The notes: generated by a model not told the origin, from the letters alone. A DNA stretch of 64,000 nucleotides from Candidatus Bathyarchaeota archaeon (GCA_963782525.1 CAWAKC010000011.1:64001-128000); one strand, 5' to 3'; shown: positions 10,016-52,646, counted from the first letter of the stretch. Numbers and translations: made by a program.

Positions 10016-12796
10016 ATGAAAAAAATAGATAATTTCTCGAAAAATAAAATCTCAGCAATCGCTATCATTCTACTGCTAACTGTATCTATGGCTGGCGCTC
10101 TCGCATTTATGCCAGCTGCAAGTGCCCTCGCTGCCGCTCAAACAATTCAACACCATACCTTCATGTACTCCAGCGTAGGCAGCAGCGTGATTGGTGTGGG
10201 TCAAACCAACCTTCTCGTTTACTGGACCGCAGACATTCCACCAGACATCGGTGAAACAGACGCTATAATCACCGCGACAAACGGCTTAAACCGCGCTTCA
10301 TGGGACGGAATATCCTTCAACATTACTACACCTAGCGGAGTCACAACTAACTATCCAGTTGGAGCAAGTGACCCAGTAGGTGGCGGATACCTTGCATACG
10401 TACCAGAAGAAGTCGGCACATACACAGTTATCGCCATCTTCCCAGACACATGGAAGAACAGTACTCTCATAACACTCCCAGACGGATCTCAAGCTTTGGG
10501 TCCCCATGAAACAGGCTACAACGCTAATCCAGCACTTTCAACTCCCCAAAACCAGCACTATACAGCCGGTAGCAGTGAACCAATAACCTTTGTTGCACAA
10601 GCGGAACCAATCGCATCATGGACCGAATCACCTATTCCATCTGACTATTGGACACGACCAATAAACGATGCTAGCAGACAATGGAGTGCACTTCCAGGTA
10701 ACTGGCTTCTTGGTGCTTGGAACCAACCCTTAGGTCAAGCGGGCGGTACAACTACCCGTTACGTCTACGGTACTGGCACAGAAACTTCCCACGTGCTCTG
10801 GACAAGACCATTGTACGTTGGCGGCTACATGGATGCACGATTTAACGACACGGGCTACGAAACAGGACACTATCAAGGCCTCGACTTCAACGCTATAATT
10901 CTTAACGGCAGAGTCTACTACCCTGACCGCGCAGACGCATACAGATCAATCGGCTTTAACGTCGTAGACCTTTACACAGGCGAATTATTAGGCTACTACA
11001 ATGAAACTATGCCATCATACGGTCAAATCTACAATTATGAATCACCCAACCAACATGGAGGGTACTCATTCTTGTGGAGATCAGCTCCAAGTCTTGGTGC
11101 TGCTAACGGTTCAGTTTTGGAAATGCTTGATGGATACGCACTGCCGCTTCGTCACATATGTTATATAGCTAACGCTTCTGCTTCAGGTACAAACGTCGTC
11201 GGTAACAATGGAGAGCTTTTATGGTACAACATTGTTAACAAAGGGACAGCAACGAATCCTAACTACTACTTAACCTGCTGGAATAACACTAACGTTCTCG
11301 GCGAAACTGCAACCCCACCGAACACCGGAACTACTTACTGGCAATGGAGACCAGAAGGAGGCGGATTCGGAGGAGGACCCGCACTAAACAACGGTATGGT
11401 CTTTGACGGAAGCACTGGATTCTCAATCAACGCTTCAATCCCAACTCCCTACGGACCAAGCAACAGCATCGTCAACCAAACAGGTACACTACTCACAGTC
11501 CGCGTAGGCGACACAGATGGTAAAGGCGGTTTCGTTATCCTCGGAACCTTGGGACAAAACAATGACCTCGGAAACGTACAAGGTCAACTGTGGGCCCTTA
11601 GTCTCGAAAGAGGCAAAGAAGGCACACAACTCTGGACAACATCCTTTACAGCACCATACTTACCATTAGACTTCAATGAAACAGTCGGTTCAATGTTCTC
11701 TACATTCAGCTTAGTTGGTGTATATCCAGAAGACAACGTAATACTCTTCCACTCTTCAAAGCAACTCAAATACTGGGCAATCGACATGACCACTGGACAA
11801 CCACTCTGGGAAACTGCACGTGAACCTGATAATAACTACTACAGCACACAATACAACTACTACAACCATATGCTCCTGACAACAGGGTACGGCGGAGTAT
11901 GTATCGCGTACAGCATGGCAACAGGCGAACAACTCTGGAACTACACTGCAACCAACATCGGCGGCGAATCACCATATGGTAACTACCCACTCAACATCTT
12001 CGCTGTCTGCGACGGTAAACTCTATCTGCTCACGGGTGAGCACTCAGTGACTCAACCAATGTGGCGTGGACCAAACATACGCTGCATCAACGCAACCAAT
12101 GGCGCAGAAATATGGACTTTACTGGGGATGGGTGCTGACAACGGCGCACATCTTACAGGACAGTACATGGAAATGGGCGACGGTAGAGTCGTAGGCCTCA
12201 ACTACTTTGACAACTCAATCTATTGTATCGGACCAGGAACCAGCGCAACAACAGTCTCTGCACCACAAACAATCCCAGCAGTCGGATCAAGCGTAATGAT
12301 CACTGGAACAGTTACAGACCAAACTGCATCAGGTAGACGCAACGATAACTTCCTCTATGATTTCACTTTGCAAGGCACACCTGCAATAGCGGACGATAGC
12401 ATGGGTGCATGGATGGCTTACATGTACGAGAACCAAGCAAAACCAACAAACGCAACCGGTGTTTATGTTACGCTTTCAGCAATTGACCCCAACGGCAACT
12501 TAGTCCCAGTTGGGACAACCACAAGTGACGTAAACGGCAACTACGGCATTGTCTTCGAACCACAAGTTTCAGGAACATACCAAATCCTCGCAAGCTTCGC
12601 AGGCTCTAAAGCATACGGTCCATCACAATCTTCAACCTACTTAGCAGTAGGTGAAGCACCTGGGTCTACACCGGCGCCAACAGCTGCTCCACAATCCGTT
12701 GCAGACATGTACCTGATTCCAGCAACTATCGGCATCATCGTTGCAATTGCGATTGCTACAATCGTAATTGTGTTAGCTCTACGCAAACGACCATAA
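10016..12796 (+). CDS. large surface protein with PQQ-like beta-propeller repeats and C-terminal TM anchor
   Basis: Signal peptide; repeated (A)xDxxTGxxLW motifs; C-terminal TM followed by RKRP. Confidence 0.88.
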   Translation: MKKIDNFSKNKISAIAIILLLTVSMAGALAFMPAASALAAAQTIQHHTFMYSSVGSSVIGVGQTNLLVYWTADIPPDIGETDAIITATNGLNRASWDGISFNITTPSGVTTNYPVGASDPVGGGYLAYVPEEVGTYTVIAIFPDTWKNSTLITLPDGSQALGPHETGYNANPALSTPQNQHYTAGSSEPITFVAQAEPIASWTESPIPSDYWTRPINDASRQWSALPGNWLLGAWNQPLGQAGGTTTRYVYGTGTETSHVLWTRPLYVGGYMDARFNDTGYETGHYQGLDFNAIILNGRVYYPDRADAYRSIGFNVVDLYTGELLGYYNETMPSYGQIYNYESPNQHGGYSFLWRSAPSLGAANGSVLEMLDGYALPLRHICYIANASASGTNVVGNNGELLWYNIVNKGTATNPNYYLTCWNNTNVLGETATPPNTGTTYWQWRPEGGGFGGGPALNNGMVFDGSTGFSINASIPTPYGPSNSIVNQTGTLLTVRVGDTDGKGGFVILGTLGQNNDLGNVQGQLWALSLERGKEGTQLWTTSFTAPYLPLDFNETVGSMFSTFSLVGVYPEDNVILFHSSKQLKYWAIDMTTGQPLWETAREPDNNYYSTQYNYYNHMLLTTGYGGVCIAYSMATGEQLWNYTATNIGGESPYGNYPLNIFAVCDGKLYLLTGEHSVTQPMWRGPNIRCINATNGAEIWTLLGMGADNGAHLTGQYMEMGDGRVVGLNYFDNSIYCIGPGTSATTVSAPQTIPAVGSSVMITGTVTDQTASGRRNDNFLYDFTLQGTPAIADDSMGAWMAYMYENQAKPTNATGVYVTLSAIDPNGNLVPVGTTTSDVNGNYGIVFEPQVSGTYQILASFAGSKAYGPSQSSTYLAVGEAPGSTPAPTAAPQSVADMYLIPATIGIIVAIAIATIVIVLALRKRP

Positions 12797-12925
12797 ATCA
12801 GAAATAAACCACAAAAACCCTACCCTTTTTTATTTTTTAACCTAAACACAAAATTTTACTTTAAGCCACCACTAACCATAATAGGCAGAAAGTAGAATCT
12901 TGTGGATGAGGGTTACCTACAAGTA

Positions 12926-13072
12926 ATGTCATTTAGAGATCCTGTTTGCGGAATGGTTCTAGACGAGAACACGGCTAAATTCAAGATTTCTTATGACGGC
13001 GAAACATACTATTTTTGCAGTCTCGTCTGTAAGAAACGTTTTAAGCGGCACGCAACAAAGTTCGTAAAATAA
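12926..13072 (+). CDS. YHS-domain small protein (not in ORF track)
   Basis: MSFRDPVCGMVLDENTAKFKISYDGETYYFCSLVCKKRF: DPVCGM...YYFCS..C signature. Confidence 0.9.
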   Translation: MSFRDPVCGMVLDENTAKFKISYDGETYYFCSLVCKKRFKRHATKFVK

Positions 13073-13108
13073 CCTCTTTTAAAACAAAAAAATTGGTTGT
13101 TTAGAGTT

Positions 13109-39791: not shown

Positions 39792-40886
39792 ATGCAGATA
39801 AAACAACCCCTCACCGAATTTCTTCACTCAAAAGGCTTCCTAATCTTACTGGTCTTTTTCGCAATCTCAGCTGTGCTGCCAATAGTTATACCTGATAGTT
39901 TCTTTCTCTACATTCTAACTCTCATCTTTGTTTTCGCGATTTACGCGGCAAGCTGGAATTTTCTTGCTAATTCCGGTCAAGGCTCACTTGGACATGCAGT
40001 CTTCTTGGGTATCGGTGGATTCTCATCAGCAATCCTCGGGGGCAGAATTTCCATAGCGTTGATTGGGGTTTTGGGTGTAACTCAGATGCCGATTGGTGTC
40101 TTGTCGGTTTTTGTGCAGATTGTTGTGTTGCTCGTCGGTGGTTTGGTTTCTGCTGGAATTGGCTTGTTGATAGGTTTGGCTTGTGTTCGTTTGAAGGCTT
40201 GGTATTTGGCTATGGTGACGTTTGGTTTTTCAGTAATCGCTAGCACTCTCTCAAGCCAGTTTGATTCCTTCACCAACGGCATAAATGGTTTTTCTCCGGT
40301 TAGGCTTGTGCAGGGCGGATATCCGTTCTATTTTTTGGTGATCTCCTTTGCTGCAGCTTCAATCGCTACGATGTATCTGATCATGAGGTCACGGATGGGA
40401 TTAGCATTTCGGGCTATCCATGGAAACGAAGCAGAAGCTAGAATGATTGGAATTAACACAGCAAAGTATAAGCTAATAGCGTTTGTCATAAGCACCTTTT
40501 TCGCTGGCATAGCAGGCGGATTGTACTCGTATTTCTTAACTTTCATTGATAACTCCATCTTTTCCCCTGCCAACTCTTTCTTGCCACTTATTATGACTGT
40601 AATTGGAGGATTGGGAACCGTTGTTGGACCAATCATCGGCGCCATCTTCCTAGTTTCGATTCAGCAAATTTTAGCGCTTCCAGGAGTCGTTGACTCCCTA
40701 AGAACATCTCTTGGATCATACTTCCCAGGAGTAAGCAACGTTGGACCTCCCCTAAGCTACCTAATAATCGGAGTAATCCTGCTTGTGATTGTTATTTTCG
40801 CTCCAAAAGGGCTGATATCGCTTTTCCGAAAATTCTACAATTACCTCGTCAGCGAAGAAAAACCAAAAGGAACAAAAAAACAATGA
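39792..40886 (+). CDS. livM: branched-chain amino acid-type ABC permease
   Basis: SLGHAVF.GIG, YLAMVT, GLAFRAI, GGLGT..GP, APKG. Confidence 0.9.
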   Translation: MQIKQPLTEFLHSKGFLILLVFFAISAVLPIVIPDSFFLYILTLIFVFAIYAASWNFLANSGQGSLGHAVFLGIGGFSSAILGGRISIALIGVLGVTQMPIGVLSVFVQIVVLLVGGLVSAGIGLLIGLACVRLKAWYLAMVTFGFSVIASTLSSQFDSFTNGINGFSPVRLVQGGYPFYFLVISFAAASIATMYLIMRSRMGLAFRAIHGNEAEARMIGINTAKYKLIAFVISTFFAGIAGGLYSYFLTFIDNSIFSPANSFLPLIMTVIGGLGTVVGPIIGAIFLVSIQQILALPGVVDSLRTSLGSYFPGVSNVGPPLSYLIIGVILLVIVIFAPKGLISLFRKFYNYLVSEEKPKGTKKQ

Positions 40887-41245
40887 AAGGCACAGACTAC
40901 TTCGCAGAAGCTTTAGGCATAAAAGTTCTGGAAGCAAAAGACGGCTACGCAAAAGTAACCATGAAAGTCGAAAAAATCCACACAAACGCCCTGGGTTTCA
41001 CGCATGGCGGCGCAGTCTTCTCGCTGGCAGATTATGCTTTTGCTCACGCTTGCAATTGCGGCGAAAATGTGGCGGTGGCCGTTCAGGTTAGCATAAATTT
41101 CCTCAAACCCACAGTCGAGGGTGACCTTTTGACAGCTGAAGCAACCCGGGTTTCGGAAGGCAAAACAACGGGGTTATACCAGGTTACTGTTCGCAAAGAA
41201 GACAAGATCGTTGCGTTATTCACTGGGTTAGCCTTCAAAAAATAA
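40883..41245 (+). CDS. paaI: PaaI family hotdog thioesterase
   Basis: N..GFTHGGAVFSLAD.AF..ACN. Confidence 0.9.
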   Translation: MKGTDYFAEALGIKVLEAKDGYAKVTMKVEKIHTNALGFTHGGAVFSLADYAFAHACNCGENVAVAVQVSINFLKPTVEGDLLTAEATRVSEGKTTGLYQVTVRKEDKIVALFTGLAFKK

Positions 41246-41334
41246 CCTTGCCAACCAATCGCTATATAGACATTGTAGAAGAATAAACCAAGCCAACAAT
41301 ATTTTTATTGTAGACTTCGACCTAGGTTTATGAT

Positions 41335-41407
41335 GCTGGGGTGGCCGAACGGTTCAGGCGGTAGCCTGCAGAGCTGCTCTATATGGGTTCAACTCCCATC
41401 CCCAGCT
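41335..41407 (+). tRNA. tRNA-Cys(GCA)
   Basis: Acceptor GCTGGGG/CCCCAGC, U73 discriminator, anticodon arm GTAGC-CTGCAGA-GCTGC, T arm ATGGG-TTCAACT-CCCAT; no intron, CCA not encoded. Confidence 0.95.
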
Positions 41408-41439
41408 CTTTAGCATACATCCCCAGTTTTTGACAAATC

Positions 41440-41619
41440 TTACTTGCGTTTTCTGAAAAGCTTGACATTGCTCATTTCGCAGACGTATTCGTAGCCAGCT
41501 TCGATCAGTTGAGTTGCTTCTTTGACGTTTTCTGCGGCTTTACAATGGTATTCATCGTCTTCGAAGGTTACCAGTTGGGCGTAGATTAAGGTGTTTTTGA
41601 TGTTTTTGTGTCCTAATAG
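41440..41619 (-). pseudogene. C-terminal remnant of a tyrosine recombinase/integrase
   Basis: Translates LLGHKNIKNTLIYAQLV...YVCEMSNVKLFRKRK* (box II LGH...T..Y); no upstream part; stop codon about 30 nt from the tRNA 3' end. Confidence 0.8.
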
Positions 41620-41678
41620 CGGAGTTATATGTTAAATGTTCCAGTTTCAGATAAAAAAACAGGTTAAGTGTTAGGATA

Positions 41679-41879
41679 TTGGATAAAATCGTGTGTCCGC
41701 AGTGTAAAGCTCAAATTCTTCTCATTCCAGACCTAAAGAAAATGGCTGCAGTTATCGCTGATCATGTTGAAATCCATACTAATAAATTGAAGTCCAAAAA
41801 AATGCCGGAATCCGAAATTGCAAGACAGAAAAAAGAATTAGAACACACTTTGATTAAAGAAATAATAGACGCAATCTAG
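41679..41879 (+). CDS. small putative zinc-binding protein
   Basis: CPQC...HVEIH (C2H2-like). Confidence 0.65.
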   Translation: MDKIVCPQCKAQILLIPDLKKMAAVIADHVEIHTNKLKSKKMPESEIARQKKELEHTLIKEIIDAI

Positions 41880-42170
41880 AGAAATATGCATCATTTCCCT
41901 AAACGCTGCTTGTACTCGGTGATCCTTCTTTCGCCGCTTAAAACCTGAAGACTCGCTGGTAGAAATGGAGATGAATAAACAAAAGACAGGAATGAGCTTC
42001 CTCGGCATTGTTTTTGATAACCGTAAGAAAGTCATAAACCGATAGATCCATTCTGCTCTATGCGTAGAGCAAACTGCCCGCCACCCCCCGTGCGAATATG
42101 TACTTTTCAGCTATGAGCTAAAAAGGGAAGGGAATAGTACCTCAGTAATGCACAAGCGACATACTATTAT

Positions 42171-42593
42171 TTGGTGAGAAAGTATACAATAAAGAGATCG
42201 GAAGAGGCGTTTGTCTTGGAAGTAGAAAACGTGTTCAAAATAGCAGTGACCTATCCCAGAGTTCGCGAGTTTCTGACAAGCAAGAGTTGGGAATTCCAAG
42301 GAAAGGATGAGGAAATGGAGATGGACTCGTTCAGAAACAAGAAGACCGGGAAGAAGGTGTTGGAGGACATTTCGGAGGACTTTCCAGTGACCTTTCTTAT
42401 GGGCGAGCTTAGCGTGCCGGAGTTCAGATTCATCGCTAGTGAATTGACGCCGGAAATCCAGTTACTGGAAGTTGACAGTAGTTGGGAAGGTAAACCGACG
42501 ACCATCGTGGTGGCGATGACAGAAGAGCAAGTTAGGGACATGTTCGGCAGAAGAACGAAGATGAGAAAGCTTGCGGTTCACCGCGGACGCTAA
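42171..42593 (+). CDS. hypothetical protein
   Basis: 140-aa ORF, G-rich codon style unlike its neighbours. Confidence 0.65.
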   Translation: MVRKYTIKRSEEAFVLEVENVFKIAVTYPRVREFLTSKSWEFQGKDEEMEMDSFRNKKTGKKVLEDISEDFPVTFLMGELSVPEFRFIASELTPEIQLLEVDSSWEGKPTTIVVAMTEEQVRDMFGRRTKMRKLAVHRGR

Positions 42594-42627
42594 GTGATCC
42601 ATTTTGTAAACCGCTGTGCTGCTATAG

Positions 42628-42694
42628 AAAAAAGGGGGGTGCGCGGGAGACATCTCCATTAGAGTGTGGATTCAAAGTCCCACCTCTAGCACCA
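42628..42694 (+). repeat. cassette-end motif copy R1 (arm + degenerate tRNA 3' end)
   Basis: AAAAAAGGGGGGTGCGCGGGAGACATCTCC-N10-GGATTCAAAGTCCCACCTCTAGCACCA. Confidence 0.75.
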
Positions 42695-42799
42695 TTATAG
42701 ACAAATCTAAGGGAGTTCGTACACGAGATACTACGCTAGCCTTGTTAAAGAAGAAACTTTACATTTTAGTGCGTCTTATTCTATTTGAGGAGAAATACA

Positions 42800-43027
42800 A
42801 TGGTTGTTCCTTTCTATATGCTTATTCGAACTAAGAAAGGACAGGCTTTTCTTACCGTTCAAGAAGCACAAAAAATCGAAGGCGTTAAAGTTGTGCATTC
42901 CGTTATGGGGTCATACGACGTCATACTCTATGCTGAAGCAAGCGACCTTGCTGACCTAAGGCGCATCCGCGAAGCTATAACCCAAATCAGTGCTATAATT
43001 CGAACCGAAGTAGCAGTCCACACATAA
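42800..43027 (+). CDS. Lrp/AsnC ligand-binding-domain-only protein
   Basis: IEGVKVVHSVMGSYDVILYAEA..L..I...IRTE; GAGGAG upstream. Confidence 0.85.
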   Translation: MVVPFYMLIRTKKGQAFLTVQEAQKIEGVKVVHSVMGSYDVILYAEASDLADLRRIREAITQISAIIRTEVAVHT

Positions 43028-43121
43028 TTATATCAAAGACAATGGGTACCGATTAATTTCTCACGTCCTTTCACGACAAAAATGAGCATAGGCTATGCAT
43101 CGGCAAAACATCATTCATTTT

Positions 43122-43174
43122 AAAAAAGAGTGGGTTTCGCGGGAGACATCTCCACTTGTCCTAAGGTTCAAATC
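43122..43174 (+). repeat. cassette-end motif copy R2
   Basis: AAAAAAGAGTGGGTTTCGCGGGAGACATCTCC-N11-GGTTCAAATC; CGCGGGAGACATCTCCA identical to R1. Confidence 0.75.
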
Positions 43175-43259
43175 AACCTGACCCTCAACAGGCAAGTTAG
43201 CTTTAAGCAACGGCTTGTACCCATTTGGGTTCAAGTATGGCTCGGCTTGCTTCTGTATG

Positions 43260-43376
43260 CTCAATTTTATAAGCCAGTTTTGCAACTGGGGGATCGGTAA
43301 TACCTATGCAAACCACTCCCTTGAAGTCTAAGCGGGGTAGGGAATCGTACTTCAACTCAAAAGCCCATCCCCAGCT
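43260..43376 (+). repeat. ~116-bp direct repeat copy A ending in the tRNA-Cys 3' end (att-like / tRNA-like)
   Basis: Matches 48352..48467 with 3 substitutions and 1 indel; ends CCCATCCCCAGCT, identical to tRNA 41395..41407. Confidence 0.9.
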
Positions 43377-43564
43377 GTTTGTCCGAACCCTATGCTTTCG
43401 CGGGATTATTTCCGTTTTCTGAACCGTTTTTTGGCTACCGCCCTCTGGTCAGGTCACTGGCTTTATCACGTACTAATTCTTCAAAATTCAAGTTCGTCGA
43501 TAATGACTTATTTTAAATAACTCTTAATTAGTTGCTGTTCTAATATGATGTTGAGGTTTTTAGT

Positions 43565-43996
43565 TTGTCAAATGACGATATACCACTCCATTTTGAAGGC
43601 CATGATGATGTAGTATCTGAGAAAGTAATCCATTTTGAAGGAAAGAATAAGGATTTAAATCAATTATCACAACAAATCATTCAGAAACTATCCTCCGAAG
43701 GCTACAAAACACAGTCAACCAATAATCCTATGGGCATAATCATACAAGCGCAGAAAGCTGGAGTTTTACGGGGCATCATCGACGCGAATAGAGCGTTCAC
43801 CATCCTAATATCGGGCCAGCCCAACAATTTCGCAATCCACATAGGCATAGGCAAATTCATCCAGAACATAGCAGTGGCGTCGGTCGAATCCATTTTAACG
43901 GTCGGCTTATTTCTCATCGTTGACGTACCCGAAATGCTGTGGACCCTTGAAGTAGAAAAAGGAATCATCAAAGACATGACTCAGATCGTAGGTTAA
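43565..43996 (+). CDS. hypothetical protein
   Basis: 143-aa ORF with TTG start and GAGGT upstream; C-terminal hydrophobic segment. Confidence 0.75.
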   Translation: MSNDDIPLHFEGHDDVVSEKVIHFEGKNKDLNQLSQQIIQKLSSEGYKTQSTNNPMGIIIQAQKAGVLRGIIDANRAFTILISGQPNNFAIHIGIGKFIQNIAVASVESILTVGLFLIVDVPEMLWTLEVEKGIIKDMTQIVG

Positions 43997-44102
43997 ACCG
44001 CAAAAAGCTGTTACTCGGTTTTCTATCACCAAATTACCCAATTCGAGCCAAATGGCTATATCAGAGATGCGCTGCGATTTTTGTTCCAGCTATAACCTGA
44101 AG

Positions 44103-44158
44103 AAAAAAAATGGGTTTGCGAGTGAAATCTCTTTTAGGGCATAGGTTCAAATCCTCAT
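44103..44158 (+). repeat. cassette-end motif copy R3
   Basis: AAAAAAAATGGGTTTGCGAGTGAAATCTCT-N11-GGTTCAAATCCTCAT. Confidence 0.65.
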
Positions 44159-44521
44159 GAAAACCTGTAGCCGAAGTCACGGCAAAGAGCACATTGAATT
44201 TTGCCCTTGCGGGTTTCACTTAAGCCGTTCTACTACAGCAACCTCGGCTACAACATGCCAACCTCTGATACAGACCCTCTGTATGTCGGCTTTGACTACT
44301 TACTTCTCTAACTAATTTGAGATTGATGTATGGCATATCTCATTCCTAAATGAAAAGATACTCCAAAACCCAAAAAAATAATTAAAGAAAAAATAATGTG
44401 TTAAAACTTCTTATTTGCTTTATTTTGAGTTTAAGGCAAAACTGGTTTTAGCGGTCAAAAGACAAATCTGAAAATACAAAAACTGCCTTTATATTTTTAT
44501 TAAGCTAATAGTATCTGCCAT

Positions 44522-44872
44522 ATGTTTAGGTCAACGAAAAGAACTTTGGCTTTCTTGACAACAACGGAAACCCAAAAGACGCATTTAACACATTTGCGAA
44601 TGTGACTTCTCCAAATTCTGTTACATCAAATTCATCCCAAACCCCTACCCCCTTCAACCAATCCAGCAACTTCTTCACCTACACTAGCCGCGACCCCAAC
44701 TGCTACCCCAAACCCTTCGCAACCCCCCTCTCCAACTTCAAATCCTACACCAACACCCATCGTTCCAGAGATATCATCGATAGTAATTTTACCATTGTTT
44801 GCAACTATGCTCTTCATTGCAATAAAACTCAAGCATCAAAAGACCACGACATTGAGCAAATCGATTTCTTGA
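44522..44872 (+). pseudogene. internally deleted surface-protein gene (GH-like barrel end, P/T linker, VPE+TM tail)
   Basis: MFRSTKRTLAFL start joins out of frame to NFGFLDNNGNPKDAFNTF; a further shift leads to ...PTPTPIVPEISSIVILPLFATMLFIAIKLK..*. Confidence 0.55.
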
Positions 44873-44924
44873 AAACTAAACCAGAAACATAACAAATACC
44901 TTGTGAAAACTCACTTTATACAAT

Positions 44925-44979
44925 AAAGGATGGATCTCGGTGATATCTCCGCTCAGGCGGGGTTCAATTCCGATCCCCA
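44925..44979 (+). repeat. cassette-end motif copy R4
   Basis: AAAGGATGGATCTCGGTGATATCTCC-N10-GGTTCAATTCCGATCCCCA; 44960..44979 matches tRNA-Cys 41385..41404 at 18 of 20 positions. Confidence 0.7.
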
Positions 44980-45036
44980 ATACAAAAACTGACATGGATG
45001 TAAGGGTTCGGTTCTATAGTAGGCTCATTTTTTGAC

Positions 45037-45076
45037 TGTTGAAATGGTGTGGTTCAAATCCCATCCCGTTTCAACA
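45037..45076 (+). other. tRNA-like minihelix hairpin capped by a T-loop
   Basis: TGTTGAAATGG-TGTGGTTCAAATCCCATC-CCGTTTCAACA. Confidence 0.55.
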
Positions 45077-45087
45077 CTTTTTGGTTA

Positions 45088-45450
45088 TTACTTTTTAGGG
45101 CGTACGCGTTTGGCCTTGCGATTTAATGTTTTTATCGGCTCTAAGATGCATGCTGAGTAAGACCCTGGCACAATCAGTTCTATGAACTCAGCGCGTAAAG
45201 CTTTTTCTTCCGGTATCTCGCTGAACCCGTTTTCCCAACCTTCAATATTAGCTAAACTTTCAAAACCCCACAAGGCAGTGAATCCCCCGACTGAACCACC
45301 ATATTTGTGTCTGAGAACCCGCAGAGACGTTACACCCCTAAAGAAACATGGCTTCTTCTTCATCAAGGCAACTAGTTTTTTGCCCCACTCGTTATGCTCA
45401 TCTAGTTTGTCAGGGTTAACAACGTATGTTCTAGCGAGATAAACAGTCAT
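45088..45450 (-). CDS. hypothetical protein, dimeric alpha-beta barrel/NIPSNAP-like
   Basis: 120 aa; YVVNPDKLDEH...LWGFESLA pattern; GGGGAG upstream. Confidence 0.7.
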   Translation of the reverse strand: MTVYLARTYVVNPDKLDEHNEWGKKLVALMKKKPCFFRGVTSLRVLRHKYGGSVGGFTALWGFESLANIEGWENGFSEIPEEKALRAEFIELIVPGSYSACILEPIKTLNRKAKRVRPKK

Positions 45451-46099
45451 ATCTGCTCCCCAAAATATAACGTACTCAGAGGATTAAAAAAATTCCGCAT
45501 GACACGTTCAAATCACAGCGAACCAAAATACATATTCCTTTTGAAACATATTCTATCATGGTAAACAATAAAAGAAGTGTATAACAAGATGGAAATCATG
45601 AAAAAATCGATAAACGTCACAATTAGAGAAGAACCCCCTAACCCTAAACCAACCCCTGACCCTCAGCCAAATCCAATCCCAAATCCAATTTAAATGGCTT
45701 AATTCTCGCACCTATGGCTTAATGACTCTTCTGTTCGGTATCTCAGGCATTTTGTCAATAATGGTTTCGCAAGTCTATTTGCCTACAGGTTCATTGTGTT
45801 CTTTGCCACTCTTAGTTTAAGGTTTATTTCTAGTTGTGATTTCAATAGTTTTCTTGTGGAAAATTTAATAGGAAAAAGAGGATTTTTCAGTATTAATTAG
45901 TGTCTGGGAACGGTAACTACGGCGATGAGAACTCGATTTTTAAAAAGTCTTTTTAGCGCAGAAAGGAATTGTAGCGTATGCCAGAAGATAACCAGTTATT
46001 TACCTATGGTAATATTGGGGAATCATAACTCAAATCAGATGACTATCCTCAGCTTTTCTCTTGGCAAAGCATATTGGACAGTCACGCCATTTATTGTGC

Positions 46100-46588
46100 A
46101 TGGAAAAAACTGAATACACTGAATGGGTTCCAGCAGGTCTTTTAGTTAAAGGCTTATTTGCAATGGTTACTGCAATTGTTGTAATTGTCAGTATTGCCGT
46201 TTTCTTATTCAGCAATGACCCATTAGTCGAAAATTTATTGGCAATTTCCTTTTCTTGGGGTACCTTGGCTTTTTTGCTTTTTATCTACTGGAATTACAGA
46301 GGTCTCCGAATACAAATAAAGGATAATACTCTGTTTCTCGACTATGGATTATTCAACAAAAAATCCTTTTCATTAAACGAAATCGTTTCCTGCAAAAAAA
46401 CTAGAGCTTTCGGAAGATACCTTGGTATCGGAGTAAGATATGGTCTAGACCATTCAATGGCCTATACTACTTCTTTTGCAAACGCTGTGGAGATCATGCA
46501 TAATGAAGAGAGATTATTTGTTTTTTCATCTAAGTACCCTGAAAAGGTATGTGGAATAATAGAAGCAATTAAAGGCAAGGGGTCATAG
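46100..46588 (+). CDS. two-TM membrane protein with PH-like C-terminal domain
   Basis: Two TM segments, then YLGIGVRY...FVFSSKYPE. Confidence 0.7.
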   Translation: MEKTEYTEWVPAGLLVKGLFAMVTAIVVIVSIAVFLFSNDPLVENLLAISFSWGTLAFLLFIYWNYRGLRIQIKDNTLFLDYGLFNKKSFSLNEIVSCKKTRAFGRYLGIGVRYGLDHSMAYTTSFANAVEIMHNEERLFVFSSKYPEKVCGIIEAIKGKGS

Positions 46589-46653
46589 AGTAAATATGCT
46601 TAGCGATAAAAGACTATTCATCAATATTTCTTGACGGCGGTTAGTCAAATTTC

Positions 46654-48329
46654 GAGACTGTGTGAAAAGTCTGCTCTAACTCGTCTATTATGCCGTTAAC
46701 CTTAAATCTAGACCCTTCGCCCATAACAAACAAGACCAAAATAAGTGAGCAGACAATGAACGATGAAACCGACAGCTATGTAGAAGGCTTATCCAGAAAC
46801 CAAACGTTCCTACTGCCCAAAACCATAGAAGAATACGTAGAACCAGACAACCCAGTCAGATTCATAGACGCCTACGTAAACACGCTGGACATGGAAAAGT
46901 TAGGCTTCACCCACTCAACACCACAAGACCTTGGAAGACCATCATACAACCCAAAAGATCTCTGTAAACTCTATCTCTACGGAGGCCTAAACCACATCCG
47001 ATCAAGCAGAAAGCTAGAACGAGAATGCAAAACAAACCTTGAGGCAATGTGGCTGCTCAAAGGCTTAGCACCCGATTTTAAAACCATAGCGGATTTTAGA
47101 AAAGACAACCCAGCAGCCATATGCGCCTTGTTCAAAGATTTTGTAGCTTTCTTAAAAGATCTCAGTCTCTATGGAGCAAAACAAGTAACCGTAGATGGCA
47201 CCAAACTTCGGGCCGTCAACTCCAATGATAAAGCCTTTACCCAACGAGCGCTTGCAAAGAGAATAAAGGTCATGGAAAAATCAGTAAAACACTACCTAGA
47301 CGAGTTAGATGCTGCAGATGAGCAGGAAGCATCTGACGAGCAACAAGCAAGTAGCGAGTCAGGTGAAGTGGCGAAGGCTTTTATGGTAGACAAATTGGCT
47401 GCGTTGCTTGAGAAAAAAGAAAAGAGCCAAGAAATCCTTGGTAAAATAGAAAAGAGTGGTCAAAAGGAAGTTGCTCTAACTGATCTGGATTGTCGGCAGA
47501 TGATGAATCATGGCAGAGTTGAATCCTGCTATAACATGCAGGCAGCAGTGGATTCAAAAAACCATCTCATCGTCAACTACCTGGTGACTAACGAAGCTTC
47601 AGACCTAAATCAGCTCAGCGGAGTAGCTATAAGCGCAAAAGAAACACTAGGAGTAGAGCAGATTGATTGTATTTCTGATAAAGGTTATTTTGACTTCATG
47701 CAGATTAAGCAATGTGTCGACAGTGGGGTTACGCCTTATGTTGCAGTGAAGAGATCTGGAAGCGGTGGCGGTCTTGTGTCTCCGGAGTTTACTGCTGACA
47801 AATTCCGTTATGATAAGAGTGCTGATGTGTATGTTTGTCCAGCTGGGCGGCGTCTTTTGTTTTATTGTTTGAGCGTTCGTGAAGGGATTGAGATGCGTAT
47901 TTACAGATGCCAGAAAGGTGTTTGCTCTTCATGCCAATTTTTTATGACTAAGTGCACAGGCAATAAGGTAGGTCGGGTAATTTGGCGGTGGGTGCACGAA
48001 GAAGTTGTCGATGATATGAGAAAGCGGATGAAATTGCATCCAGAGATTATGGGTGAACGCAAAAAAGTGATTGAGCATACGTTTGGAACTTTGAAGAGAG
48101 CGTTTGGTGCTCCATATTTGCTGCTTAAAGGTCTTCGCAAGGTTAGTGGGGAGGTTGGGTTGCTTTTGTTTTCTTATAATTTGAGGAGAGCTCTAAACAT
48201 TCTTGGGGTTGAAGCTCTAATCCAAGCGCTTGTTAAAAAATAAAGAATAAGAGAAAGTAAAATCTCAAAAAGTATTAAGTACTTTTTCAAGTTAACAACT
48301 GGCCGCTGCGCTATTTTTTACACGGTCTC
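46654..48329 (+). mobile_element. IS1182-family insertion sequence
   Basis: TIRs GAGACTGTGTGAAA (46654) and TTTTACACGGTCTC (ends 48329), 12/14 match; 4-bp TSD TTTC on both sides. Confidence 0.9.
46756..48243 (+). CDS. IS1182-family DDE transposase
   Basis: GRPSYNP..L.LYG..SSRKLE, PDFKTIADFR, VDGTK, SDKGY, CPAG, IEHTFGTLK, YNLRR. Confidence 0.93.
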   Translation: MNDETDSYVEGLSRNQTFLLPKTIEEYVEPDNPVRFIDAYVNTLDMEKLGFTHSTPQDLGRPSYNPKDLCKLYLYGGLNHIRSSRKLERECKTNLEAMWLLKGLAPDFKTIADFRKDNPAAICALFKDFVAFLKDLSLYGAKQVTVDGTKLRAVNSNDKAFTQRALAKRIKVMEKSVKHYLDELDAADEQEASDEQQASSESGEVAKAFMVDKLAALLEKKEKSQEILGKIEKSGQKEVALTDLDCRQMMNHGRVESCYNMQAAVDSKNHLIVNYLVTNEASDLNQLSGVAISAKETLGVEQIDCISDKGYFDFMQIKQCVDSGVTPYVAVKRSGSGGGLVSPEFTADKFRYDKSADVYVCPAGRRLLFYCLSVREGIEMRIYRCQKGVCSSCQFFMTKCTGNKVGRVIWRWVHEEVVDDMRKRMKLHPEIMGERKKVIEHTFGTLKRAFGAPYLLLKGLRKVSGEVGLLLFSYNLRRALNILGVEALIQALVKK

Positions 48330-48351
48330 TTTCTTTAACTAAAAAACCAAA

Positions 48352-48467
48352 CTCAATCTTATAAGCCAGTTTTGCAACTGGGGGATCGGTAATACCTATG
48401 CAAGCCACTCCTTTGAAGTCTAAGCGGGTAGGGAATCGTACTTCAACTCAAAAGCCCATCCCCAGCT
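48352..48467 (+). repeat. ~116-bp direct repeat copy B ending in the tRNA-Cys 3' end (followed by CCA)
   Basis: Near-identical to 43260..43376; continues ...CCCCAGCT-CCA. Confidence 0.9.
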
Positions 48468-49023
48468 CCAGGGTTGGACTTTTTTATTTTTTCAAAATGT
48501 GAAGGTAAAAAACAATACTTTTGCTCGTAGCTAAGGTATCTGAAGTTCTTGAAAACAAACTATTACCGACAAAACAAACCATAAGGCAATAGAGGTGCTA
48601 TACTGTAACAGTCCCATGCAACCCCAACTTTAACCGCAACATGCTTTCCCATCTTCATCCCATCCACACCAACATGGCGCTGCATAGGATTGCGATTAAA
48701 AATTCCACTCCACCCATCCCAACAGCAACCGGAAAACAGCCCAAACCAAAAAACCAAACGTATCCAAGCTAGAGGATGGGATGGGGAAACTCCGAACCCA
48801 CCCATCCCCACAAAAAGAAAAAACTGAAAGCTCATTTGAAGAAAAATCCTTTAGCTGATGAATGGCTGTAGTTAGGTAAGAACATAAGATAGGCAACAAA
48901 CCCTATTTCTGAAAAAACTAATACGAGCGCAAAGCTGGAAGTTCTACTTCACGGCAATTTCGTGGCCAATTTGTACATTGAAATTCTCTAAACCATTATA
49001 TACGTAATTAACGGCTAAGAAGC

Positions 49024-49251
49024 TTGGTGGGCGTACTCTTGGAAAGAGATCAAGCTGTGGCTTTGCTGAAGGAGATCATGACTCATGACTTGGCGCAGCC
49101 GACAGCCGTTTATGTTAGAGAAAATAAGGGCAAGTTTGAACTGGTTCTGAAGGATGAGTGTAGGTCTCCTTTACAAAATTTTATTGCAGAAAAAGGTCTA
49201 AAGTGGCGCATAAATAAGGAAATGGGCGTTTGCATTATCTATAAACCATGA
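49024..49251 (+). CDS. small hypothetical protein
   Basis: 75-aa ORF downstream of a TTATATA box. Confidence 0.6.
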   Translation: MVGVLLERDQAVALLKEIMTHDLAQPTAVYVRENKGKFELVLKDECRSPLQNFIAEKGLKWRINKEMGVCIIYKP

Positions 49252-49482
49252 CGCATCTGGTAAACCCATCCCAACCCTAATGCATTGAAAGAGCAAAAAC
49301 CCTTCAAAAATTGAAGGGCACAGGATAAAACAACCTAAAAATCATTTTTTGTATTTTATTTTCTTGTGATGAGATGAAACCTGACAGACCTTTCCTAGTA
49401 ACCTCATAATCGGCGGAAGACCTCTGAAAGCCAAATAAGAAAGATTTTTAGTTATAAGCGGCTTCTTTTAAGTGGTGAATGC

Positions 49483-50941: not shown

Positions 50942-51450
50942 AACCTCTCTCCCACAATACCTATGACTCTCTTGCAGATTTAACACTTTGCCAAAAACAA
51001 GACGCGGTGGCTCCGAAATTGTTCAATCTTTTTGTGCGAGCTGTTGGGCTTTGCTTTGGGAAGTTGCGTTTTATCCTTTCCGTTAACTTTTAAAAACTTG
51101 CATAAAGCCCATTAAAAACGTCTCTAATTAGCGACATAGAAGAGAAGTTGTTGTTGTTGTTGTTGTTGCAACTGCATTTTGCAGACCGATTGCAACAACA
51201 ATCAAAGACAAACCCAAATTGCAACGCTAATTCCTTAAGCAAAGATGACAAAACCGTAACCACAACAAACCCAGAGAAGATGCTGCTGCTGATGCTGCTG
51301 CAAACCAATTCACCCCAGCTGTTGCAACAATCAAACCATCTTTAACAAACCCAAATCAGAACGGCTAATTCACTTTTGGGGGCTCTTAACATAAAACTTT
51401 CCGCAAACCAAATAAGTTCAACTTGCCAAAGAAACGAGCGGTTGAAGGAT

Positions 51451-51948
51451 ATGCCACAGTTTAATGTTAACCCAAGCCGAATTGATCCATACAAGAAATT
51501 CAAATTCCTAATCAAATGGGACAATAAAGTCGTTGCAGGCGTCTCAAAGATGAGTCCACTAAAACGTACCACAGACGTTATCTTGCACCGCGAAGGCGGA
51601 GACGCAAACGTCGAGCGGAAATCGCCTGGCAAAACCCACTACGACTCCATCACTTTGGAGAGAGGCGTAACGCACGACCCAGAATTTGAAGCTTGGGCAA
51701 ATTTGGTTTTTAATAAGAATAGCGGGTCGATGTCTCTTAAGAACTTCCGCAAAGACATCGTCATAGAACTACTCAACGAAGCTGGAGTTCCCGCGATTGC
51801 CTACAAGGTTTATCGATGCTGGGTCTCAGAGTACACTGCCTTGCCCGAGCTGGATGCGGGCGAAAACGCTGTTGCCATTCAAAGCATAACTATTGAGCAT
51901 GAAGGCTGGGAAAGAGACCCAGGCGTAGTTGAACCCAAAGAAACATAA
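51451..51948 (+). CDS. T4 gp19-like phage/eCIS tail tube protein
   Basis: DPYKKFKF, HREGG, SPGKTHYDSITLERGVT, FEAWA, RKDI.IELLNEAG, ELDA..NAVAIQ...EHEGWERD. Confidence 0.9.
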   Translation: MPQFNVNPSRIDPYKKFKFLIKWDNKVVAGVSKMSPLKRTTDVILHREGGDANVERKSPGKTHYDSITLERGVTHDPEFEAWANLVFNKNSGSMSLKNFRKDIVIELLNEAGVPAIAYKVYRCWVSEYTALPELDAGENAVAIQSITIEHEGWERDPGVVEPKET

Positions 51949-51968
51949 ATGCCTGGTAGGATGCACAT

Positions 51969-52646
51969 TTGCCAAGCCAACCCAGCATAAACAGAGGAAC
52001 CCTAATCCTGCTTGCCCCAAACGCCAAAGACGCAAACATCTCCGTCACAAACGTGTTTTTCACTTTCCAGTACAACCCAGAAAAACTGTTACACACATTC
52101 AACCAAAACACGCCCAACGCAGCCGCAAACCCATCCGCCAACGTACAAGGCGTCCCAACAGAATATTTCAACCTAACATTCGAACTCGACAGCGTCGACT
52201 TAGACTCATCTTCGCAAAGTCAGAGTTCAGCAGGTCTAGGCTTGCACCCAGGGTTGGCTATGCTGGAGCTGATGATGCAGCCGCAGGTAGTAGGAAAACA
52301 AACTTTTTTGCCCATCGTTGTGTTTAAGTGGGGAGCAAAACGGTCCGTAGCAGTTCGCTTGGTGGGCATGAGTGTTGAAGAAAAATCTTTTGATATGACA
52401 TTGAATCCTACGAGGGCAACCGTTAGCTTATCTCTAAGAGTTCTTGACGCCTCAGAAGTCAACAATAATCCAGGTGCTCGCAACGTCTATTCGAGCCATC
52501 AGAATACGCAGGCAAGTTTAGTGGATGCTTACAAACTGCAAACGGGGCAAGGTATCGGTATAGGTGCCAGCGGCGCAGCAGGTCTCTCAGGGTCAGCGGC
52601 GATGGCTGCTTCGGCAGGCCAAAATAACCAAAAAGTAACGGTTTGA
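51969..52646 (+). CDS. contractile injection system tube-initiator-like protein (Afp7/Pvc7-like, no LysM)
   Basis: FQYNPEKL, L.FELD, P.VVFKWG, SVEEKSFD..LNPTRATVSLSL. Confidence 0.75.
   Translation: MPSQPSINRGTLILLAPNAKDANISVTNVFFTFQYNPEKLLHTFNQNTPNAAANPSANVQGVPTEYFNLTFELDSVDLDSSSQSQSSAGLGLHPGLAMLELMMQPQVVGKQTFLPIVVFKWGAKRSVAVRLVGMSVEEKSFDMTLNPTRATVSLSLRVLDASEVNNNPGARNVYSSHQNTQASLVDAYKLQTGQGIGIGASGAAGLSGSAAMAASAGQNNQKVTV

Follow-up and report, generated by a model that had tools for sequence, protein, structure and literature searches.

Within the 64,000-nt stretch of Candidatus Bathyarchaeota DNA analysed here (the window), a tRNA-Cys(GCA) gene is followed on the same strand by two near-identical copies, A and B, of a 116-bp repeat, which are interspersed with integrase remnants, a cargo gene and an insertion sequence (IS):

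41335..41408, plus strand: tRNA-Cys(GCA), the putative integration target (ARAGORN; Rfam RF00005, 54.5 bits; sequence)
41440..41631, minus strand: C-terminal integrase remnant of 63 aa, ...LGHKNIKNTLIYAQL...KLFRKRK* (stop-to-stop ORFs; tblastn)
42171..42593, plus strand: cargo ORF of the first unit, 140 aa, without a Pfam match
43260..43376, plus strand: copy A, with TATA box at 43266-43272, ATG at 43306-43308 and att core at 43364-43376
43406..43470, minus strand: flank feature after copy A (six-frame translation)
~45995..46054, plus strand: third copy, degenerate and with an internal deletion, ending in ...CTATCCTCAGCT (weak evidence)
~46654..48329, plus strand: IS with a DUF772/DDE transposase ORF at 46690-48243 (Pfam, BLAST, ends, contigs of X1-X4)
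48352..48470, plus strand: copy B plus CCA, the same module as A, with ATG at 48398-48400

As the original prediction had stated, three substitutions and one indel distinguish copy A (43260-43376) from copy B (48352-48467), the indel being a single G (GGGG in A, GGG in B). A repeat search aligned them in two blocks (43260-43336 with 48352-48428, 77 nt, 96% identity; 43335-43376 with 48426-48467, 42 nt, 100% identity), and BLAST recovered the pair with E=2e-49. Both copies share the core CCCATCCCCAGCT with the 3' end of the tRNA-Cys, which lacks an encoded CCA because foreign DNA adjoins its 3' end. The core of copy B is followed by CTCCA, corresponding to the tRNA-Cys 3' end with CCA, and then by a T-rich stretch. 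Copy A contains 23 intact codons (MQTTPLKSKRGRESYFNSKAHPQ), hereafter the stub, which extend up to 43374 within the att core, and copy B carries a T>C change in its TATA region and a 1-nt deletion that shifts the frame of the stub (MQATPLKSKRVGNRTSTQKPIP). The assignment of the third copy is weak (69% identity over the last 42 nt; nhmmer E=1.3; alignment). Four further diverged copies are present in the same genome (C2, C3, C10 and C12).

The integrase remnant at 41440-41631 reads towards the tRNA-Cys and belongs to a second kind of tyrosine integrase, sharing 54% identity (tblastn) with aa 363-429 of a full-length relative that adjoins a tRNA-Pro(GGG) in the same genome (C6:36008-37294). The tRNA-Cys and copy A are alike in being followed by remnants of this different, opposite-reading integrase, and the flank type found after copy A also occurs in L056, L017, L063 and L026. 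The region holding the cargo ORF (42143-42657) shares 88.6% identity with DNA flanked by two stub copies in a related genome (G023:C11), while flanking host genes reach about 72% in the same comparison. The IS is bounded by terminal inverted repeats (GAGACYGTGT), is present in six copies of >99% identity in the genome (BLAST against the own genome) and inserted 22 bp upstream of copy B. An identity of the repeats as a MITE or as IS ends was rejected, as the inverted ends of the IS are its own and it is only a neighbour of copy B. The two copies had been proposed as att sites bounding a mobile 5.1-kb unit; the interval between them contains the degenerate third copy and the IS but no integrase, and thus does not constitute one such unit. 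The att interpretation itself was right in kind: both copies terminate with the 3' end of tRNA-Cys, have the same orientation as the tRNA gene, lie downstream of it and are found amid integrase remnants. Each copy reads as an attR-type end, consisting of an element arm plus the core, and not as plain duplicated tRNA sequence.

The repeat consists of a TATA box, a short leader and a conserved ATG followed by 22 codons that run in frame into the core CCCATCCCCAGCT(CCA). Among 39 full-length homologues, mean column entropy from the ATG onward is 0.39/0.24/0.55 by codon position (permutation p=0.0016 for periodicity), whereas it is flat (0.66-0.73) 5' of the ATG. The ATG and 23 open codons are kept in 27 of the 39 homologues, the remaining 12 being decayed, and indels are confined to the region before the ATG, bar single-base frameshifts in seven copies. 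The TATA box (TTTTATAAG) is nearly invariant and located ~40 nt upstream of the ATG, where it may act as a promoter. Variation in codon phase supports the repeat being probably coding rather than an RNA. Coding on the minus strand, considered from a hand translation, was dropped on account of 1-nt indels among the copies.

The sequence motifs on which a tRNA-Cys mimic had been postulated are all present, including TTATAA, the palindrome CCAGTT-TTGC-AACTGG, the TTGAAGT/ACTTCAA stem, TTCAACTC-AAAAGC-CCATCCCCAGCT and the CCA after copy B. The 'TGCA anticodon' is nonetheless the start codon ATG followed by CA, and the AAAAGC, although present, is not a 6-nt insert in a tRNA 3' end but precisely two codons (K A). 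The idea of a structured non-coding RNA of ~90 nt that derives from tRNA-Cys and might be aminoacylated or bear CCA could draw on the pairing potential of CTGGGG...CCCCAG and TTGAAGT/ACTTCAA in the window's two copies and on the CCA directly 3' of copy B. Yet neither a tRNA nor any other Rfam match was found by cmscan (E<=10) on 43230-43420 and L013, and the sole tRNA called by ARAGORN is that at 41335-41408. The 39 homologues have no consensus fold, RNAalifold returning just five pairs (-3.15 kcal/mol) and no compensatory changes; for the long form consisting of the stub and its class 1 flank (described below) it gave 11 pairs (-7.8 kcal/mol), likewise without compensatory changes. The two postulated stems, acceptor-like and 7-bp, fared no better than shuffled sequences, with covariation scores that were reached by 117 of 500 and 181 of 500 shuffles; the bases at 32/117 fail to pair in 35 of 38 sequences, and four of the seven pairs of the 7-bp stem are broken in 12-17 of the 38. 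The CCA represents a displaced tRNA-Cys end that occurs in 11 of 59 copies with unrelated DNA beyond. Together with the codon-phase variation, these results make a structured RNA highly improbable.

The repeat family was identified in 52 of the 120 congeners, where it frequently forms arrays around cargo without an integrase. In at least nine other genomes (G090, G020, G016, G001, G115, G049, G071, G023 and G112), copies are co-oriented with and within ~10 kb downstream of a tRNA-Cys, and many copies are located far from tRNA-Cys. The element is conserved at 77-91% identity, compared with ~72% for flanking host genes, and the DNA between copies is unalignable. In 11 of 59 copies the core is followed by CTCCA and unrelated DNA, corresponding to the tRNA-Cys CCA end and host flank; unrelated DNA also lies beyond CTCCA in six of six metagenome copies, which were chosen by a query pattern that itself ends in CTCCA. 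At least 14 of the 59 copies share a class 1 flank, in which a stop codon (TGA or TAA) follows three codons past the core. This flank resembles the stretch between a tRNA-Thr and a start-less integrase in G240, and thus looks like a truncated integrase-side arm. None of 142 ORFs in nine arrays matched integrase families; among the cargo, which is encoded on both strands, are a set of arsenic-resistance genes, regulators and small ORFs of unknown function. Partial tRNA-Cys 3' repeats also occur in relatives (e.g., G098:C13).

A 218-nt contig of the public metagenome run X1 spans 43296-43513 without differences, so that the junction on the right of copy A is found outside this assembly as well, though the run may be the assembly's own source. 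All 20 runs listed for positions 41300-48600 represent DNA contigs, and none RNA. Contigs of X1-X4 on 40800-49300, where cover is sparse, include none that joins A to B by deletion. The only joint among them, 43367 to 44979 (side 24), represents a relative's class 1 flank, and the sequence at a loose end at 48468 corresponds to that flanking the G001:C6 copy. The search for an empty site yielded no clean example. A query combining the tRNA end with the flank common to four class 3 copies retrieved three matches, all of them partial tRNA ends or stubs and none an intact tRNA-Cys with that flank, and a pattern scan of genome contigs, a set from which close relatives may be missing, gave a single match, in Candidatus Bathyarchaeota.

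No integrase of the cognate family is encoded in this genome. In relatives and among metagenome proteins, the stub frame continues behind tRNA-Cys, without a start codon, into a tyrosine recombinase of 400-470 aa. In G090, the frame FNSHPQL is open behind a genuine tRNA-Cys into the integrase N-terminus (...NPKRIDIYGIKKIYE...DITEEDRKSILEFVDHLLAKNM...), and the same frame is open behind a tRNA-Cys 3' end in G115; both carry K where relatives carry M. Two full-length integrases, P0006 (448 aa) and P0015 (470 aa), are called through the tRNA-Cys in the stub frame and contain no internal Met before the conserved start, and the start-less relative in G240 reads out of the tRNA-Thr. Many homologous integrases (e.g., G076, G046 and P0002) do encode a Met at the conserved start, so the stub may be dispensable, with only the promoter split off. 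In the extended form, the conserved integrase fold does not include the first 45 residues. The enzymes contain a SAM-like domain, a C-terminal zinc ribbon and an HxxR box; P0015 and the G076 integrase match PF00589, PF02899/PF13495 and zinc ribbons, and PF16795 is not listed for either at E<=1. Inspection by eye of the stretch that separates the tRNA from the integrase in G090 and in G076 revealed no TATA-like box.

None of 65 copies reads on into an integrase, the exact joint sequence had no match in metagenome and viral contigs, and the only two longer database proteins containing the stub peptide are not integrases. Among the stored loci, five distinct core-to-CTCCA(T/A)A(G/A)TT junctions were identified, one of which (L078) leads into unrelated DNA with early stops, while the other four lead into integrase sequence; all four are truncated pseudogenes, those of G016 and G121 being frameshifted. 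Viral contigs contained no relatives of P0015 and, with alignment A3, eight distantly related integrases, with 30-43% identity in the best segment. Of these, the first four (L097-L100) sit at the locus start: three begin at the integrase ATG, the fourth emerges from a tRNA-like 3' end, and all four are uninformative. A tRNA 3' repeat marking the far end (attR) was not found within 18 kb in G046 (tRNA-Gly), 16.5 kb in G076 or 14 kb in G240 (tRNA-Thr).

We consider it reasonably likely that copies A and B are attR-type ends, comprising an int(N) stub and promoter, of decayed self-splitting elements stacked at tRNA-Cys. Such elements would have entered the 3' end of tRNA-Cys(GCA) successively, and the terminal 13-16 bp of the copies (CCCATCCCCAGCT, in B with CCA) would be the crossover core that they share with the tRNA. 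The ~100 bp left of the core would be element DNA carrying an archaeal TATA box, a leader of ~10-15 nt and the ATG with 22 codons, and in the excised circle promoter and ORF would continue across attP into a tyrosine-recombinase gene. The start-less recombinase frame behind tRNA-Cys in relatives suggests that integration cuts this gene, probably the element's own integrase, into two parts: int(N), which corresponds to the 116-bp repeat with its promoter and 23-codon stub, and int(C), which lies behind the tRNA and lacks a start codon. In the window, the int(C) parts would have been lost and other elements and the IS would have landed in the stack, leaving the stubs as relics. The repeats and their family, the coding signature, the continuity of the frame and the lack of RNA structure are observed, whereas promoter activity, the order of insertions and the fused gene in the circle are inferred. 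Several observations weigh against this reading: the fused gene was not found intact, the junctions that lead into integrase sequence are all pseudogenes, many homologous integrases have a Met at the conserved start, the integrase remnants in the window are of another kind, this genome lacks a cognate integrase, enzyme family and core length differ from those of known suicidal integrases, many copies are remote from tRNA-Cys, and no clean empty site turned up.

The Met at the conserved N-terminus of many family members, the position of the first 45 residues outside the conserved fold, Pfam domains as in classical integrases and the lack of a fused protein among the searches above would also suit a classical (lambda- or pNOB8-like) integrase that lies complete behind the tRNA. 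The repeat would then be the P arm of attP, with an outward, circle-specific promoter and a short upstream ORF, and the coding sequence would be unsplit. We regard this as unlikely, as the 23 codons vary with codon periodicity and their ATG is conserved, P0006, P0015, G090 and G115 have Lys instead of an internal Met and are open through the tRNA, and no TATA-like box was seen by eye in front of the integrases of G090 and G076. Alternatively, the repeat could be a small independent gene with its own promoter encoding a 26-aa basic peptide, or a mobile promoter module belonging to cassettes without integrase, unrelated to integrase coding and with a 3' end that doubles as the core. The stop codon of the class 1 flank and the integrase-free cargo units between class 1 copies fit such a gene, which is nevertheless quite improbable given the resemblance of this flank to a truncated integrase arm and a frame match with tRNA-Cys-linked integrases that would have to be coincidental.

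Split integrase genes are known from SSV1/SSV2, pTN3 and pT26-2 (SSV-type, type I), in which attP lies inside the gene, the 3' part of a tRNA is targeted, and an int(N) stub with promoter at one end is matched by a start-less int(C) from the tRNA at the other, according to PMC8371274 and PMC7253208. The locus resembles these in that CCCATCCCCAGCT(CCA) is identical in tRNA-Cys, A and B. Here, too, attP may lie inside the gene, with a stub ORF and putative promoter entering the core and start-less frames leaving tRNA-Cys in relatives, although no intact fused gene was found. In contrast to the 40-50-bp att cores and the PF16795 (Phage_integr_3) superfamily described in PMC8371274 for suicidal integrases, and to the R...KxxR...Y consensus attributed to SSV1-type enzymes, the core here comprises 13-16 bp, the stub only 23 codons, and the integrase matches PF00589, with a SAM-like domain, zinc ribbon and HxxR and neither PF16795 nor R...KxxR...Y. 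The host is a Bathyarchaeia archaeon, whereas a 2021 review confines self-splitting integrases to the SSV/pTN3/pT26-2 superfamily of heat-loving archaea. Classical type II elements (lambda/pNOB8), for which tandem arrays are reported in PMC7253208, likewise stack in direct orientation behind one tRNA with integrase remnants abutting the tRNA end; here, what is repeated is not tRNA but element DNA (~100 bp) that includes a promoter and an ORF running into the core. A type II element would contain a complete integrase gene with its own start, separate from attP; some relatives have an internal Met, the tRNA-Cys-linked ones have Lys there, and the integrase remnants in the window are all of another kind. 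The state-dependent switching of the integrase promoter described for ICEKp1 (PMC13023037) is similar in that an end promoter would drive a gene at the other end only after circularisation, but is bacterial and leaves the coding sequence unsplit, whereas here codons also appear to be split off.

A tentative and rather doubtful extension is that stub, core and class 1 flank form a portable attP (~160 bp) of integrase-less cassettes, which would accumulate as tandem series behind tRNA-Cys as well as at secondary cores and would be inserted and excised by a self-splitting integrase that acts in trans and whose family is not yet counted as suicidal, as a tRNA-anchored archaeal counterpart of integron arrays. 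Integrons consist of short cargo units in arrays beside a fixed attachment site, with a recombination site at the end of every unit and a recombinase that mobilises them in trans; an IntI-type integrase lies beside attI, and attC sites are conserved as imperfect hairpins and not in sequence. Ghaly and colleagues reportedly described archaeal integrons in 2022. The arrays studied here differ in that their sites are conserved in sequence (77-93% identity) and not as a hairpin structure, no IntI is present among the 142 ORFs, and cargo is encoded on both strands.

The apparent tRNA mimic has thus turned into a recognisable scar of mobile DNA, which can be read by a simple rule: an open frame that starts at an ATG behind a TATA box and enters a tRNA 3' end. 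Such stubs mark islands with adaptive cargo, for example arsenic-resistance genes. If the split-gene reading is true, self-splitting arose also in an ordinary PF00589 family that is common in Bathyarchaeia, and the integrase-less arrays would then allow archaeal gene capture and shuffling without integrons to be tested.

The host genome (G000; 2.87 Mb in 12 contigs, with intron-bearing tRNAs) carries the two repeats of the window, copies A (43260-43376) and B (48352-48467), which differ, as originally described, by three substitutions and one G indel (E=2e-49). A genuine tRNA-Cys(GCA) lies at 41335-41408, 1.85 kb upstream of copy A, and its 3' end, CCCATCCCCAGCT, terminates both copies, with CCA added in copy B. 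A third, degenerate copy at ~45995-46054 and four further diverged copies on contigs C2, C3, C10 and C12 had been overlooked by the original prediction, whose proposal of integrase att sites was right in kind and wrong in detail. With moderate confidence, we consider the best explanation to be a self-splitting integrase, the copies being element ends that bear its N-terminal stub, int(N).

On the + strand, the conserved blocks follow in the order TTTTATAAG, spacer, CTGGAGGATC..GGTAAT, four variable bases and ATG CAA ACC..., which runs into the core. TTTTATAAG is TATA-like and almost invariant among the homologues, and the palindrome highlighted in the original prediction falls within the variable spacer behind it. 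Translation from the ATG through the core yields MQTTPLKSKRGRESYFNSKAHPQ; the 'TGCA' taken for a retained anticodon belongs to this start codon, and the 'AAAAGC insert' in the tRNA end consists of two codons (K A). From the ATG onward, mean column entropy at the three codon positions is 0.39/0.24/0.55, compared with 0.69/0.73/0.66 in an upstream control; a permutation test on H3-H2 gave p=0.0016, a value that overstates independence since the copies are related. The same pattern is found in the first 15 codons, outside the tRNA-like part. The ATG and 23 open codons are retained in 27/39 copies, and decay among the 39 takes the form of a lost ATG (5 or 6 copies) or a frameshift (7, copy B included).

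The alternative reading, a structured RNA mimicking a tRNA, was rejected. Neither copy A nor the long form of a relative matched any Rfam family, tRNA included (E<=10), and RNAalifold on an alignment of 39 full-length homologues of the repeat returned 5 pairs (-3.15 kcal/mol) with 0 compensatory changes. Covariation scores of the proposed hairpin, 7-bp stem and acceptor-like stem were matched by 117/500 and 181/500 shuffles. The stems are broken in many homologues: positions 32/117 do not pair in 35/38 distinct sequences, and in the 7-bp stem four pairs are disrupted in 12-17 of the 38. A T/A difference considered as covariation proves to be synonymous (GGT/GGA).

A candidate for the second half of the gene stands behind tRNAs in relatives. 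In G090, a genuine tRNA-Cys is followed by CTCCATAGTTC..., and the frame through its T-arm and acceptor reads FNSHPQL, the same frame as FNSKAHPQL of the stub. It stays open into ...NPKRIDIYGIKKIYETTLKRLKTKTDITEEDRKSILEFVDHLLAKNMTPLRVVKYMNQL..., part of an integrase copy truncated after ~110 residues. In the predicted attP, the stub (…AAAAGCCCATCCCCAGCTCCA) would be joined to the integrase-side arm (TAGTTC…). Full-length relatives of 396-425 aa, with PF00589, a SAM-like domain and a zinc ribbon, are encoded in G076, G075 and G046, in each case immediately after a tRNA. Among the 120 database homologues listed, P0006 (448 aa) and P0015 (470 aa) were called straight through tRNA-Cys (…GFNSHPQLQ…); both have Lys instead of Met where other members start, as do the G090 and G115 remnants. 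A start-less member also reads out of tRNA-Thr in G240, from another family of the same order. By eye, no TATA-like box was seen in the interval from tRNA to integrase in G090 or G076. Homologous integrases carry Bathyarchaeia as source name, one of the reasons for taking the host to be a Bathyarchaeia archaeon. In addition, G115 has a partial tRNA-Cys end whose integrase remnant (L075, contig C5, minus strand, ~8120) passes without a break into ...VKAHPQYNY*, where a stub with a class 1 flank (see below) ends; cores within one array may thus have recombined with each other.

In an excised circle, the promoter and ATG of the stub would stand at the head of an unbroken ORF spanning attP, which integration would cut in two. 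The fused gene was not seen: 0/65 copies read on into an integrase, the stub-to-integrase joint pattern had 0 matches in metagenome and viral contigs, and all 6 metagenome copies fetched by a pattern ending in CTCCA continue into unrelated DNA after it. Only two longer proteins contain the stub peptide, neither of them an integrase. Its absence from chromosomes is expected, since earlier work notes that no tandem junction with a rebuilt suicidal integrase has been observed (PMC7253208). Even so, support for the split gene remains indirect. Against it count the internal Met present in many members of the integrase family, the position of the integrase outside the PF16795 family, with an HxxR box, and the lack of any member of the cognate family in G000.

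The DNA to the right of the core was sorted over 59 distinct copies by a regex count, plus reassignment by eye:

Right-flank classes of the repeat
Class 1: 14/59 copies; TACAAAAACTGACATGAATGTATAGGGTTCGGTTCCCC after the core
Class 2: 4/59 copies, copy A included; 3' end of a minus-strand integrase, ...FRKRK*
Class 3: 11/59 copies, copy B included; CTCC(A/G), then unrelated DNA
Unclassified by regex: 30/59 copies; by eye, five of them are also class 1 (L013, L052, L030, L034, L035) and three class 2 (L056, L053, L022)

Class 3 is the CCA end of tRNA-Cys and whatever stood behind it. Class 2 is a second kind of element on the same core; it also occurs behind the tRNA-Cys of the window as a 63-aa remnant (41440-41631). 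This remnant and that at 43406-43470 are related to a full-length 428-aa tyrosine integrase of G000 (C6:36008-37294), which reads towards tRNA-Pro(GGG), and at least 8 further fragments of its family are present in the genome.

In class 1, a stop codon is retained three codons past the core. This flank is never without a stub in G000, it stands behind tRNA-Cys-type 3' ends in G002:C1 and G091:C7, and it is similar to the sequence that separates tRNA-Thr from the start-less integrase in G240. Units that extend from a class 1 flank to the following stub bear cargo, namely ArsR, ACR3-like (SBF), methyltransferase and LMW-phosphatase genes in G002:C1, and HTH regulators and unknown ORFs elsewhere. 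The same arsenic-type set (ferredoxin, ArsR, SBF/ACR3-like, methyltransferase) was identified at two loci of G002, L037 (C1, 4392-9177) and L042 (C11, 659-3535), both adjoining a stub with a class 1 flank, with the LMW phosphatase only on C1. None of these units bears an integrase (0/142 ORFs of >=100 aa in nine loci matched one). The units look like non-autonomous cassettes that retain an attP-like site.

In our reading, three or more decayed units are stacked behind tRNA-Cys in 41408-48470, and their insertion order and arm pairing are inferred:

Proposed units behind tRNA-Cys in the window
41409-43376: unit 1; class 2 integrase remnant, small zinc-ribbon-like ORF, 140-aa ORF, AsnC-like ORF, stub A
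43377 to ~46054: unit 2; 15-aa integrase remnant, small ORFs, degenerate stub
~46055-48467: unit 3; 175-aa ORF, insertion sequence (IS), stub B
~46654-48329: the IS of unit 3; 517-aa DUF772/DDE transposase, GAGACYGTGT terminal inverted repeats

Stub B is followed by CCA and a T-rich stretch. The segment 42143-42657, which holds the 140-aa cargo ORF, is 88.6% identical to inter-stub DNA in G023:C11, compared with 72% for the host backbone, which argues for its horizontal movement. The IS, likewise overlooked before, ends 22 bp short of copy B; its six copies in G000 (C1, C3, C9, C10 and two on C11) are >99% identical, so the element has been active recently, and TTTCTTGAC-like words flank most of them on both sides. 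A further repeat family, AAAAAAG.GGG..GCGGGAGACATCTCCA, occurs at 42625-42658, 43121-43154 and 44100-44133, often with T-arm-like GGTTCAAATC within 20-40 nt after it. In G091, G117, G085 and G002, members of this family also adjoin stub copies; a binding site or a further att remnant would be possible identities. A few kb to the right of copy B, 51376-52646 contains T4 gp19-like tail-tube (PF06841) and contractile-injection-system tube (PF19266) genes, in a stretch not shared with G001. Elsewhere in the window, the tRNA-Arg(CCG) with a 1729-nt intron that ARAGORN, introns allowed, calls at 11268-13089 (G000:C11:75268-77089) is probably a false call.

The repeat was detected in 10/24 sampled congeners compared with 0/16 genomes from other genera of the order and, in a wider sample, in 52/120 genomes of the genus, G000 included (E<=1e-5), usually in 1-7 copies. 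Direct arrays with a spacing of 0.8-6.5 kb are frequent (e.g. G002:C1, G016:C7, G020:C168, G090:C1, G092:C26, G075:C21). Between genomes, the repeat alone aligns at 77-91%, neighbouring host genes align at ~72%, and inter-copy DNA is unalignable. Co-oriented copies lie within ~10 kb downstream of tRNA-Cys in G090, G020, G016, G001, G115, G049, G071, G023 and G112, and many others are distant from it or on other contigs (G117, G121, G128, G092, G085, G111). In G000, an intron-bearing tRNA-Ser(GGA) is followed after 150 bp by a diverged stub copy (C12:22176-22508), and in G001:C6 two copies lie downstream of tRNA-Ser(GCU); the stub family thus also occurs outside tRNA-Cys loci.

The label 'gene capture' is reportedly that of She et al. 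2001, and the scars so named were already known, according to review passages. SSV-type 'suicidal' integrases are defined by an ORF that spans attP and is cut by integration (PMC8371274, PMC7253208), and passages of a 2021 review class these enzymes together in one superfamily, that of hyperthermophiles. The portions of the literature searched contained no account of self-splitting integrases from Bathyarchaeia. The mechanism proposed here would be the same as that of the SSV-type enzymes; the system differs from known suicidal integrases in the family of its enzyme, in its host lineage and in having a very short int(N) stub and core, and its apparent integrase-less cassettes are a further difference.
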